Made by a program: the position numbers and the translations under genes
IMG/VR virus record: IMGVR_UViG_2541047816_000006
Span: 1 to 10,967 of that record
Source: a virus
Taxonomy: Duplodnaviria; Heunggongvirae; Uroviricota; Caudoviricetes
Length of the DNA stretch: 10,967 bases
Reading direction: 5' to 3' (one strand)
The notes under the pieces: generated by a model
Database searches by the model: none
Told to the model about the DNA's origin: nothing
What the model saw: only the letters and a program-made list of their open reading frames with translations
Part shown: positions 1-6,362 of the stretch, piece after piece
Layout: each line of letters opens with the position of its first letter
Position numbering within the stretch: position 1 is the first letter of the stretch

Positions 1-3839
<3,839 letters not shown>

Positions 3840-3861
3840 TCATCAGTTGCTGCTATGGAAT

Positions 3862-4185
3862 ATGGTTGACAGTCTGATTAAAACATTAATAGCCATTCTA
3901 ACAATCCCACTGGTTTTCTGGTTTATGAAGAAGCAGTGCCAAAGAGTTGAGACAGGTAAAATCGGTGATGAAGGATACTCATGGGAGAGGGGAAATCCCA
4001 AATACAGGCCGACAATGGTTTGGGATAGCAAAGGAGATATTAACCTTCTTATCATGCCATTGGTTGGAGTTTTGACTCTGTGGGGGATTTTTATTATTGG
4101 TGTAGTAACCAATATGACTTGGTTAAAAATTTGGCTGGCCCCAAAGCTTTACCTTATCGAATATGCAGCATCATTGGTTAAGTAA
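3862..4185 (+). CDS. Small hydrophobic protein with two predicted transmembrane helices (about 107 aa), moron-like cargo
   Basis: ORF in a visibly AT-rich stretch; hydrophobic segments LIKTLIAILTIPLVFWF and LLIMPLVGVLTLWGIFIIGVV; strong terminator immediately downstream. Start uncertain (TTG 3847 or ATG 3862); the frame stays open back to the IS100 boundary (in-frame stop at 3790..3792 inside the IS). No clear Shine-Dalgarno sequence. Confidence 0.45.
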   Translation: MVDSLIKTLIAILTIPLVFWFMKKQCQRVETGKIGDEGYSWERGNPKYRPTMVWDSKGDINLLIMPLVGVLTLWGIFIIGVVTNMTWLKIWLAPKLYLIEYAASLVK

Positions 4186-4189
4186 TTTC

Positions 4190-4215
4190 AGGCCGCATAG
4201 TCGGCCTTTATTTTT
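4190..4215 (+). terminator. Rho-independent terminator
   Basis: Perfect 6-bp stem aggccg / cggcct with loop catagt, followed by ttatttttg; begins 5 nt after the stop codon at 4183..4185. Confidence 0.7.
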
Positions 4216-4244
4216 GGCATAAACAACAGAATAAACACTGCACT

Positions 4245-4334: not shown

Positions 4335-4360
4335 GCCCTCCAATGTGAGGGCCTTTTTAT
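4335..4360 (+). terminator. Rho-independent terminator
   Basis: Stem gccctc / gagggc with loop caatgt, followed by ctttttat. It lies inside the six-frame-track ORF 4320..4595, which argues that ORF's upstream start is spurious. Confidence 0.6.
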
Positions 4361-4424
4361 ATGCATACCAATAACGCTTCACTCGAGGCGTTTTCGTTAT
4401 GCAATCAAACAGAAGGAGCATCCT

Positions 4425-4595
4425 ATGCAACAGTTCGCTATTGCAGGGGCGGCATCGGTTCGCCCTTTCAACCCGATTTTATCGGTACAGCATTCACGAA
4501 AAAACATTTTAACCGGAGCAGACTTTAAACAACCAAGAATGAAAAGTTTGCTCGAAAAGCTTTGGGATATTTTGAAACAACAAGGCCGTCCATGA
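4425..4595 (+). CDS. Hypothetical small protein (56 aa)
   Basis: ATG preceded by AAGGAG with 6-nt spacer; stop overlaps the next ATG (ATGA at 4592..4595). First gene of the plus-strand operon. Confidence 0.45.
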   Translation: MQQFAIAGAASVRPFNPILSVQHSRKNILTGADFKQPRMKSLLEKLWDILKQQGRP

Positions 4596-4699
4596 GTTTT
4601 ACGGATAACTGGTCAGACGAAGAATTCATTCGTCAGATGAACAAAATGCTCAATCAGCACAAAGAACAGGAGAAAGATGATGATTCTGACTCTGAATGA
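4592..4699 (+). CDS. Hypothetical very small acidic protein (35 aa)
   Basis: ATG overlaps the upstream stop (ATGA); product MSFTDNWSDEEFIRQMNKMLNQHKEQEKDDDSDSE; 3' end overlaps the start of the next gene in another frame. Not in the ORF track (under 60 aa); read by hand. Confidence 0.25.
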   Translation: MSFTDNWSDEEFIRQMNKMLNQHKEQEKDDDSDSE

Positions 4700-4988
4700 T
4701 AAGCGTGAAATATCGCAAATAATCGCAAGTTTTACTGATGAAGATTACGAACGAATTAACAGTGAAGTTGATCGCCTCTGCAAACGTTGCGACCCAATAA
4801 GCGAAATGCTTCGCTCATATAAACCAGATGAACACACTAAGGACGCTATCGACTGGCTGGAAGATGATGACTGTAACTATCAGGAAAAAGCCGCTGAATG
4901 GTTCTGGGATGCAATAACCGAAAGAGTTAAGGCTGAATATGCCTTCGCAATATTTAAACGCAGACACATTTTTGGAGAAGCAGCATGA
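4677..4988 (+). CDS. Hypothetical acidic protein (103 aa) translationally coupled to recT
   Basis: Two in-frame ATGs preceded by AGGAG; stop overlaps the recT ATG (ATGA at 4985..4988). No family recognised. Confidence 0.6.
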   Translation: MMILTLNDKREISQIIASFTDEDYERINSEVDRLCKRCDPISEMLRSYKPDEHTKDAIDWLEDDDCNYQEKAAEWFWDAITERVKAEYAFAIFKRRHIFGEAA

Positions 4989-5896
4989 GCAATATCGTTG
5001 AATTCGTTAAACAGCAAGAGCAGTTATTCTGCGGAGCATTGACTGAACAGACGGTGACATGGGCTAAGGAAAGCCAGTTTGCAATTCAGTATTTCCAGAA
5101 AAACGATTACCTGGCTAAAACAGCACTGGCAAATCCAACCAGCGCACAGAACGCCATCATCAATGTTGCGGCGATCGGCATCACCTTAAACCCTGCAAGC
5201 AAACTGGCTTATCTGGTTCCGCGCGATGGCATGGTTTGCCTTGATATCAGCTATATGGGATTGCTCCATATTGCAATGGAGTCTGGTGTTATCTCATGGG
5301 GTCAGGCAAAACTTGTTCATGCTAACGATACCTATGAGTCAAACGGGCTTGATAAAGCACCAACCCATAAATACAACGCCTTCGGTGATCGTGGTGATAT
5401 CGTTGGCGTTTACTGCACAGTTAAGACGCCGGCAGGTGATTATCTAACGGAAGAGATGAGTCTGGCTGAAATTGAGGCTGTAAGGAAAACAAGCAAGGCA
5501 GCATTCAGCGATAAAGGACCATGGGTAAATCACTGGAATGAGATGGCGCGAAAGACGGTCGTAAAGCGTGCAAGCAAGTATTGGCCTAAGGCATCACGTC
5601 TTGATAGTGCTATTCACGTACTAAACGAAGAAGAAGGTGTATGGACTGAACCAGTTATGCCGCACAAATCAGAGGAAGATATCCGCGAAGATGAACGGAA
5701 ACGCCAGCAGGAAATAACGGATAAAGCACAACTTCTTTGTGATGAAATGGCTCAGGCAGAAAACATGGATGATTTGAAGCGATATTTTGCAGAAGCATAT
5801 CGCCTGACATCTGGAATGAAATTGCAGCAGAACATACAAGCCATTTACATAGAATGCAAAGCGAAACTGGAGGTTGCCAGTGAGCAAACTGTATGA
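4985..5896 (+). CDS. recT: RecT-family single-strand annealing recombinase (303 aa)
   Basis: Segment KGPWVNHWNEMARKTVVKRASKYWP closely resembles the conserved GPWVTHWEEMAKKTAIRRLFKYLP region of Rac-prophage RecT as I recall it; size typical. Confidence 0.88.
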   Translation: MSNIVEFVKQQEQLFCGALTEQTVTWAKESQFAIQYFQKNDYLAKTALANPTSAQNAIINVAAIGITLNPASKLAYLVPRDGMVCLDISYMGLLHIAMESGVISWGQAKLVHANDTYESNGLDKAPTHKYNAFGDRGDIVGVYCTVKTPAGDYLTEEMSLAEIEAVRKTSKAAFSDKGPWVNHWNEMARKTVVKRASKYWPKASRLDSAIHVLNEEEGVWTEPVMPHKSEEDIREDERKRQQEITDKAQLLCDEMAQAENMDDLKRYFAEAYRLTSGMKLQQNIQAIYIECKAKLEVASEQTV

Positions 5897-6362
5897 AATA
5901 GCTAATGAATACGCAAAATTGATGGATTCAGATTTAGAACCAGAGATGATTGCTGACACAATAGAAGGCATGGAAGGAGAATTTACCGATAAAATAGAGC
6001 AACTTCTCGCCATTATTAAAAATGAATCTGGTTATGCTGAACGCCTCAAGGAAGAGGCAAAGTCACTAAATGAGCGAGCCGCAGTAATTCAAAATAAGAT
6101 TGACAGCATCAAATCATATATAGCGTCATCGCTTGAAATGGTTGGCAAGAAAAAGATTCGAGCAGGTATTCACCAGGTAACAATCCGCAAACCGTCAGAA
6201 ACTGTAGAAATCATCGACTCAAGCGCCCTTCCTCCTGAATACGTTGAGTTTGAAACGACAATTAAAGCCGACAAGTTGGCAATCAAACACCAACTAAAAG
6301 CAGGAATAAATATCCCCGGTGCTCAACTCAAAGTTGGGAAACCTTCACTTCTTATCAAATAA
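5880..6362 (+). CDS. Coiled-coil protein, Gam-like / Siphovirus-Gp157-like recombination accessory (about 160 aa)
   Basis: Immediately after recT, overlapping its stop; GGAGG 6 nt upstream of GTG 5880 (track start is TTG 5874). Coiled-coil N-terminal half and C-terminal region resemble small proteins commonly paired with recT; family assignment is tentative. Confidence 0.55.
   Translation: MSKLYEIANEYAKLMDSDLEPEMIADTIEGMEGEFTDKIEQLLAIIKNESGYAERLKEEAKSLNERAAVIQNKIDSIKSYIASSLEMVGKKKIRAGIHQVTIRKPSETVEIIDSSALPPEYVEFETTIKADKLAIKHQLKAGINIPGAQLKVGKPSLLIK

Follow-up and report, generated by a model that had tools for sequence, protein, structure and literature searches.

A candidate Gam-fold protein family encoded between cIII and recT in a lambdoid prophage remnant

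Genes and context of the cIII-to-recT segment

The window (the whole stretch of DNA that was analysed, 10,967 nt, from IMG/VR record IMGVR_UViG_2541047816_000006) carries an ordinary section of a lambdoid early-left (pL) operon, in which cIII leads into a recombination module. The features considered here are the following.

1 to 1,836, minus strand: endosialidase tailspike gene without its N-terminal part; the match to the beta-barrel domain model starts only at position 48 of 83
About 1,841 to 3,794: IS100, upstream of the cIII region and adjoining the endosialidase tailspike gene
4,190 to 4,217, 4,335 to 4,362 and 4,373 to 4,402, plus strand: three hairpins resembling terminators, each with a T-tail, in the leader that precedes cIII
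4,425 to 4,595, plus strand: ORF1 (putative cIII), 56 aa; ATG at 4,425, TGA at 4,593-4,595, AAGGAG 9 nt upstream
4,592 to 4,699, plus strand: ORF2, 35 aa; ATG at 4,592, in an ATGA overlap with the ORF1 stop, TGA at 4,697-4,699
4,677 to 4,988, plus strand: ORF3, 103 aa; ATG at 4,677, TGA at 4,986-4,988, AGGAG 6 nt upstream
4,985 to 5,896, plus strand: recT, encoding a single-strand annealing protein (PF03837, E 2.9e-32; phrog_148, E 8e-92)
5,874 to 6,362, plus strand: Sipho_Gp157 family gene (PF05565, E 2.8e-38; phrog_253, 'Mu Gam-like end protection', E 3.5e-54)

A preliminary description of this DNA had reported three small open reading frames of 56, 35 and 103 codons chained into recT, two of them encoding acidic proteins, and all of the sizes and joints were confirmed: ORF1 and ORF2 share an ATGA, ORF2 and ORF3 overlap by 23 nt in different frames, and the ATG of recT (4,985) forms a second ATGA with the stop codon of ORF3. 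A GGAG sequence lies within the final ORF3 codons, and recT, with which the recombination module begins, is translationally coupled to ORF3. The two acidic products are those of ORF2 (pI 4.3, net charge -7) and ORF3 (pI 4.65, net charge -9), with ORF1 being strongly basic (pI 11.0). Public annotations place two of the starts differently, using the second ATG of ORF3 at 4,680, which gives a protein of 102 aa, and a GTG at 5,880 for the Sipho_Gp157 gene. ATGA chaining is commonplace in phage operons and is unremarkable alone; we regard ORF1, ORF2 and ORF3 as real genes because they are conserved. In all, 12 phage records and 133 complete E. coli genomes contain the chain, 96-99% identical in DNA sequence, with near-identical blocks in phages E212, HK140, Gally, mEpX1, 611R6 and SEN22, and a diverged form of it occurs in Cronobacter, Erwinia and metagenomic relatives.

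The surrounding operon architecture is normal, and the interest of the locus lies in ORF3, which represents an unannotated family of proteins of about 100 aa. The gene order in HK140 is cI, N, sieB, ral, cIII, a 102-aa gene (gp42), recT, the Gp157 gene (gp40) and the ea genes, and in Kapi1 it is cIII, kil, a 35-aa gene, a 102-aa gene and recT. The corresponding stretches are cIII-kil-gam-bet-exo in lambda and c3, kil, arf, erf, abc1, abc2 in P22, with abc1 and abc2 placed after erf in P22, HK97, Sf6 and SPN9CC. The locus itself is a defective, CUS-3/HK140-like prophage remnant from which pL and N were removed by IS100. Since pL, N and the immunity region (cI) are absent from the window, as are the late genes, expression of the chain at this particular locus is doubtful.

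The three hairpins in the leader compare with 0.9 +/- 1.0 terminator-like hairpins in shuffled sequences. They lie where lambda has its tL2-type terminators, through which transcription continues under N antitermination, and a tL2A homologue is annotated at the equivalent place in Sf6; the hairpins presumably function as terminators as well. No Chi site occurs in the window, a count that is uninformative because only 0.22 sites are expected.

The CIII homologue and the small acidic peptide

ORF1 has no match in Pfam (PF02061 included) or NCBIfam. Because the PF02061 model misses ORF1, we compared profiles with profiles, aligning a small profile of ORF1-type proteins by hhalign with one made from the CIII proteins of lambda, P22, HK97, Sf6 and other phages; the two match over their full length with a probability of 94% (P 9e-8). 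A PHROG profile search likewise places ORF1 in phrog_550 (E 1e-22), the profile that lambda CIII matches with an E-value of 1.4e-31. The counterparts of ORF1 in HK140, mEpX1, SEN22 and SPN9CC carry a CIII annotation, and the position of the gene, after N/ral and before kil or the recombination genes, is the same in HK140, SEN22, SPN9CC, lambda, P22, HK97 and Sf6. Like the CIII proteins of lambda and P22, ORF1 has an MQxAIAG start, an amphipathic C-terminal LLxxL..DIL.Q.G.P segment and this operon position; unlike them, it carries about 10 inserted residues, its central helix is shorter, and it goes undetected by the Pfam model. We conclude that ORF1 is very likely a divergent CIII, and the earlier statement that none of the three products belongs to a recognisable family is therefore wrong for ORF1. 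CIII is a protein of known function, encountered here in divergent form: by homology, ORF1 would be a competitive inhibitor of the host FtsH (HflB) protease that stabilises CII and thereby favours lysogeny, and not an anti-nuclease.

ORF2 matches no Pfam or NCBIfam family. In PHROG it matches phrog_17766 (E 5e-16), phrog_2123 (residues 1-20, E 3.5e-10) and, marginally, phrog_2445, the P22 Arf family (E 0.062, residues 5-26 aligned to positions 3-24 of the 47-position profile); Sf6 gp30 matches phrog_2445 at a similar level (E 0.037), and the diverged copies of ORF2 gave no phrog_2445 match in the PHROG search. The PHROG names 'CIII anti-termination' and 'recombinase' (phrog_2123, phrog_1723) were held to be unreliable and were not used as evidence. 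Two diverged copies are informative. One, of 32 aa (MSFGETMSELEFILTMQEMLKEQENDDDSDSE), lies in a metagenomic relative (L015) whose ORF3 homologue is 69% identical to ORF3; the other, of 33 aa (MKTLNPRDMTDEQFARLMKDLMKQTPKQQEQKQ), comes from Cronobacter phage ENT47670, in which an ATGA or TAATG overlap links each gene of the series kil, ORF2, ORF3 homologue and recT to the next. The diverged copies retain the reading frame, a [ST]DE[EQ]F motif, the ATGA overlaps on both sides and acidity at about 35-50% identity. By sequence, then, ORF2 is a genuine, conserved gene for an acidic peptide, situated where cIII/kil meets the recombination genes. The Kil-type function that had been suggested for a gene in this slot did not hold up: ORF2 has no Kil PHROG match, and in both Kapi1 and ENT47670 a separate kil gene lies just upstream of the ORF2 copy, so that Kil was ruled out as an identity for ORF2.

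What ORF2 does can be addressed only tentatively. It would be translated by coupling from cIII (from kil in relatives), and our best guess is that it may be an Arf-like recombination accessory, an identity that we consider possible and no firmer than that. P22 Arf is likewise small and very acidic, has an N-terminal [FW]SDEEFI motif (WSDEEFI in ORF2) and is encoded between kil/cIII and the recombination genes; Arf differs from ORF2 in length (47 aa, as against 35 aa), the profile match has an E-value of only 0.06, and ORF2 is kept from the annealing protein gene by ORF3, whereas arf abuts erf in P22. Alternatively, ORF2 might have no function as a protein and be a short frame that only serves as a bridge for ribosomes passing from cIII or kil to the following gene, at a mosaic boundary between recombining lambdoid modules. 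The N-terminal 21 residues of ORF2 are common to HK97 gp42.1 and Sf6 gp30, after which the sequences part, so a mosaic joint lies inside the gene, and ORF2 diverges at that point along with the downstream module, a feature in favour of a bridging frame. In addition, the ORF2 frame continues to 60 aa across another annotated gene in SPN9CC, ORF2 is left out of many public annotations, and a natural in-frame ORF2::ORF3 deletion is known (P0025). Nonetheless, that the copies still have the motif, the acidic character, a length of 32-35 aa and the overlap at each end at about 35-50% identity is unexpected for a mere spacer, and the match to the Arf family, weak as it is, is consistent in position, so we regard a purely bridging role as doubtful.

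The ORF3 family and its neighbourhood

ORF3 has no match in Pfam or NCBIfam, and its family corresponds to PHROG 3486, which is annotated 'unknown function'. A word-indexed search with ORF3 returned close relatives only; an exhaustive HMMER search yielded 51 representatives, about 30 of which are full-length proteins of 97-110 aa with 25-52% identity; some 35 diverged representatives all fall within this length range. In a Pfam scan of 36 family members, none matched PF06064 (Gam, at E<=1) or PF28165 (GamL), and a HMMER profile of the family searched against PDB sequences gave chance-level matches only, with Gam absent from them. A zinc-binding role for ORF3 through a CxxC motif was ruled out, as the cysteines are not conserved in the family.

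The predicted structure of ORF3 resembles lambda Gam. A monomer model made with AlphaFold2 from the family alignment is all-helical, with a pLDDT of 91.5 and helices at residues 6-17, 21-35, 40-47, 54-64 and 66-102. In this model, a long N-terminal helix, kinked at residues 18-20, is followed by a turn at Pro40, two short helices and a long C-terminal helix, so that the predicted protein combines the two elements of the GamS fold, a long N-terminal helix and a three-helix C-terminal domain. Foldseek ranked GamS first among PDB structures, with six GamS chains among the 44 matches, at E-values of 2.5 or worse that are non-significant alone; in BFVD, lambda Gam was not listed and the sole match with a probability of 1.0 was an uncharacterised 107-aa protein. 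Gam and GamL have Pro40 without exception, the consensus of the ORF3 family has it too, and the net charge of ORF3 is close to that of GamS (-10, pI 4.99) and GamL (-7).

Sequence profiles point in the same direction. The best match between the ORF3 and Gam profiles falls in the most conserved segment of each family (on the ORF3 side, core DDDCNYQEKAAE, full segment TKDAIDWLEDDDCNYQEKAAEWFWDA), where hhalign aligns residues 54-79 of ORF3 with residues 58-83 of Gam at 35% identity (P 7.8e-4). Column shuffling did not reproduce the score of 23.7 in any of 150 trials (mean 11.2, sd 2.5, maximum 20.4; z about 5). The segment contains a motif common to the ORF3 family and Gam, DDDxx[FY]QE, which is located where the third and fourth helices meet and extends between ORF3 and lambda Gam as DDDxx[FY]QE[KR]xAE. 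Lambda Gam (GamS; PF06064; PDB 2UUZ, 2UV1 and 5MBV) and ORF3 are of similar size (98 and 103 aa), with the same helix order, and their genes fill the same operon slot, with cIII/kil before it and the annealing protein gene immediately after. They differ in several respects: identity is about 15%, the modelled N-terminal helix of ORF3 is kinked, its C-terminal helix (66-102) is longer than that of Gam, and the N-terminal helix motif MNAYxxxDRIExxxW, which is common to Gam and GamL (P 5.6e-8), is absent from the ORF3 family, whose profile aligns with the N-terminus of neither. We consider it likely that ORF3 has the lambda Gam fold, and the ORF3 family is probably a distant relative of Gam.

To describe the neighbourhood of the family, we read the contexts of ORF3 homologues in annotated phages and in contigs encoding family members. 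In most of the relatives read, whose identities range from 95% to 25%, the gene follows cIII or kil; the small open reading frames upstream of it in two short contigs are not identifiable as cIII or kil. In every context but one, the gene that comes right after the ORF3 homologue is the first recombination gene, whose start codon overlaps the stop codon of the homologue, the exception being a contig (L018) in which a 107-aa PF27050 gene stands between the ORF3 homologue and recT. The Shine-Dalgarno sequence of the next gene is found inside conserved C-terminal E[AV]A codons across the family. The genes that follow vary, as listed here.

RecT and Gp157: the window, L015 and L018
RecT and a lambda-type or YqaJ exonuclease: ENT47670, Midgardsormr38 and L021
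DUF3799 nuclease: SEN22, L014 and L017
A 167-aa protein and YqaJ: L019

The family thus keeps to the head of the module whichever partner follows, which is gam-like behaviour. The chain had been described as occupying the position of RecBCD inhibitors in both lambda-like and P22-like phages; the match to the lambda gam slot stands, whereas the P22 comparison does not, since Abc1 and Abc2 are encoded downstream of erf, and none of the three open reading frames has a Pfam or PHROG match to Abc1 or Abc2.

ORF3 as a candidate RecBCD inhibitor

Among proteins that block the RecBCD nuclease of the host, lambda Gam is the classic example. Its N-terminal helix enters and fills the ssDNA channel of RecB (PMC5218532). 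A 2025 survey of 325 lambdoid phages recognised four types of anti-RecBCD protein, Gam, GamL, Abc2 and MuGam, of which MuGam-type proteins bind DNA ends and lambda Gam binds RecBCD itself (PMC12315714). GamL is reported to have the Gam fold though its sequence is unlike that of Gam (PMC12315714). The GamL of phi80 (PF28165) resembles ORF3 in being small (93 aa), acidic and encoded directly upstream of a RecT-like annealing protein, and the annealing proteins of phi80 and HK140 are of one sequence type, SAP-4 (PMC12315714). Phi80 GamL differs in that its N-terminal helix is that of Gam and not that of ORF3, and in having Mog (agt) as its partner, a protein that the present locus lacks. A direct link between ORF3 and GamL was rejected: a single-sequence hhalign comparison was colinear (E 0.006), and the match disappeared with a profile of 24 GamL sequences (P 0.31). 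The ORF3 family is not mentioned in the main text of the survey (PMC12315714), and we found no mention of the family or of HK140 gp42 in the literature searched.

We suggest that the locus is best explained, on balance, by ORF1 being CIII, ORF2 being a conserved peptide and ORF3 being a Gam-fold candidate RecBCD blocker in the gam slot. The Gam-like fold and charge make ORF3 a credible candidate for a RecBCD inhibitor; by analogy with Gam, it may well inhibit RecBCD, and we consider the case for this to be evenly balanced. As with every biological activity ascribed to ORF3 here, we infer that the protein most likely forms an acidic, DNA-mimicking dimer that would sit on RecBCD at the site where DNA ends bind. 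Blocking RecBCD in this way would shield linear phage DNA and the intermediates of RecT recombination.

Modules of the SEN22 type were scored as lacking an anti-RecBCD function, yet the two phages concerned have zero Chi sites, and absence of Chi sites is the pattern of RecBCD-inhibiting phages (PMC12315714). SEN22-type modules do carry an ORF3 homologue, and the zero Chi count fits an inhibitor that was overlooked, on a sample of two phages.

The module in the window has another candidate for end protection in the Sipho_Gp157 protein (PF05565), encoded downstream of recT and unrelated in sequence to ORF1, ORF2 and ORF3. The HK140 module was described as SAP-4 plus MuGam, with Sipho_Gp157 classed as a DNA-end-binding, MuGam-type anti-RecBCD protein (PMC12315714). 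Because a MuGam-type gene is already present, a second RecBCD blocker is not required, although the two kinds can coexist: HK639 is one phage with both GamL and MuGam (PMC12315714). This redundancy is one reason to consider that ORF3 might instead be a cofactor, chaperone or regulator of the next recombination protein, with its likeness to Gam reflecting ancestry or a common small helical fold. The absence from ORF3 of the channel-helix motif of Gam and GamL is consistent with such an accessory role, as is the family-wide retention of the stop/start overlap and of the Shine-Dalgarno sequence in the E[AV]A codons, and P22 provides precedents in Arf and Abc1, small recombination accessories of unknown mechanism. 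A specific protein partner is hard to reconcile with the variety of proteins encoded next to ORF3 homologues (RecT, a DUF3799 nuclease, a 167-aa protein or a PF27050 protein), and the matches in fold, charge and conserved motif are to Gam specifically. We therefore regard an accessory role as unlikely, though it is the alternative to RecBCD inhibition that survives best.

The lack of the channel-helix motif could also be accommodated if the ORF3 family were a third, overlooked family of Gam-fold nuclease blockers, with a differing N-terminal helix that makes another contact with RecBCD or serves another target. ORF3 would then work beside the MuGam-type end binder, possibly with the ORF2 peptide, and module types scored as having no anti-RecBCD function, such as that of SEN22, would hide an inhibitor. 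We think this rather unlikely. Less probable still is that ORF3 is a Gam-fold DNA mimic directed against SbcCD or another end-processing or defence complex, leaving RecBCD to Gp157. The difference of its N-terminal helix from those of Gam and GamL and its co-occurrence with a MuGam-type gene would be compatible with a different target, and lambda Gam itself has been reported to affect SbcCD (PMC5218532); against this, positive evidence is lacking for any other target, and ORF3 homologues also occur in modules without another anti-RecBCD candidate (the RecT plus exonuclease and DUF3799 types).

The broader proposal that all three open reading frames encode unrecognised anti-nuclease or anti-defence proteins, as first suggested from their early-left operon position and the acidity of ORF2 and ORF3, is highly implausible. 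Profile searches gave ORF1, a basic protein, a known and unrelated function as a CIII homologue, nothing supports such a role for ORF2, and the proposal is retained for ORF3 alone, whose predicted Gam-like fold makes it a credible candidate.

Should ORF3 proteins prove to inhibit RecBCD, they would add one type to the known lambdoid anti-RecBCD proteins (Gam, GamL, Abc2 and MuGam; PMC12315714), and modules classed as having no inhibitor, such as those of the SEN22 type and the RecT plus exonuclease modules of Cronobacter and Erwinia phages, would need to be re-scored, which would bear on the association reported between Chi-site abundance and lack of an inhibitor. ORF1, with its known function, and ORF2, as one more small peptide, contribute little that is new. 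A protein that combines the Gam fold with another kind of channel helix would reveal which regions of Gam RecBCD binding requires, and ORF3 could serve as an alternative Gam in RecT-type recombineering.

A recombination joint within ORF2

The first 21 codons of ORF2, the gene for the 35-aa acidic peptide, are shared with HK97 gp42.1, Sf6 gp30 and a 60-aa frame of SPN9CC.

Reading frames with ORF2-like 5' codons
2501-2752 of L012 (HK97): gp42.1
2501-2659 of L013 (Sf6): gp30
2713-2895 of L003 (SPN9CC): 60-aa frame

Past codon 21 the four frames differ, in step with the module downstream, and we infer from this pattern that a joint of recombination between lambdoid modules lies inside ORF2. The PHROG name "recombinase" for ORF2-type families has no visible basis. 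A natural in-frame ORF2::ORF3 fusion is found in P0025, a 69-aa E. coli protein in which window positions 4592-4676 are joined to 4863-4988; the fusion apparently arose by a 187-nt deletion between two GATGATGA repeats, which encode KDDD in ORF2 and EDDD in ORF3.

ORF3 and end protection

We compared the junction between ORF3 and the next gene (window 4970-4990) with its equivalents in relatives (L008-L010 and L014-L021 being the loci compared). The codons for a conserved C-terminal E[AV]A in the ORF3 family coincide with the Shine-Dalgarno sequence (GGAG or GAGG) of the next gene, and stop and start overlap as ATGA, GTGATG or TAATG; part of the apparent protein conservation at the ORF3 C-terminus is therefore a translational-coupling signal. 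In L008 (SEN22), L014 and L017, the ORF3 homologue heads a module in which a DUF3799 (RecE-like) nuclease follows, with no RecT in any of these three modules. The SEN22 module type has 0 Chi sites, yet was scored as lacking an anti-RecBCD function (PMC12315714).

Some Salmonella Gam proteins (search hits P0168 and P0171) are matched by both PF06064 (Gam) and PF28165 (GamL), in agreement with the similarity found between the N-terminal helices of Gam and GamL. A further gene follows recT.

5874-6362, + strand: Sipho_Gp157 protein, overlapping the recT 3' end by 17-23 nt

Its PHROG label is "Mu Gam-like end protection", and the protein is classed as MuGam in PMC12315714; hence, the recombination module of the window may hold two different end-protection functions.

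The left flank

In window 1-3794, IS100 adjoins a minus-strand gene for a K1-type endosialidase tailspike that is missing its N-terminal part.

about 1841-3794: IS100, IS21 family (istA 1927-2949, istB 2946-3728)
3847-4185, + strand: 112-aa predicted membrane protein, phrog_3054 (unknown function), between IS100 and cIII

Since the window also has no pL, N, cI or late genes, it is a defective CUS-3-like prophage remnant. The exact IS100/tailspike junction occurs in none of the complete E. coli genomes of our collection. No kil gene lies between cIII and ORF2 in the window; in several relatives the stretch from cIII to the ORF3 homologue holds short ORFs of Kil-like type, not all of which are annotated (L009, 3251-3406; L014, about 2888-3001; L010, 3388-3504; L021, 152-274). 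Gally, HF4s and Stx2a phages also carry the phrog_3054 gene on the 5' side of cIII.
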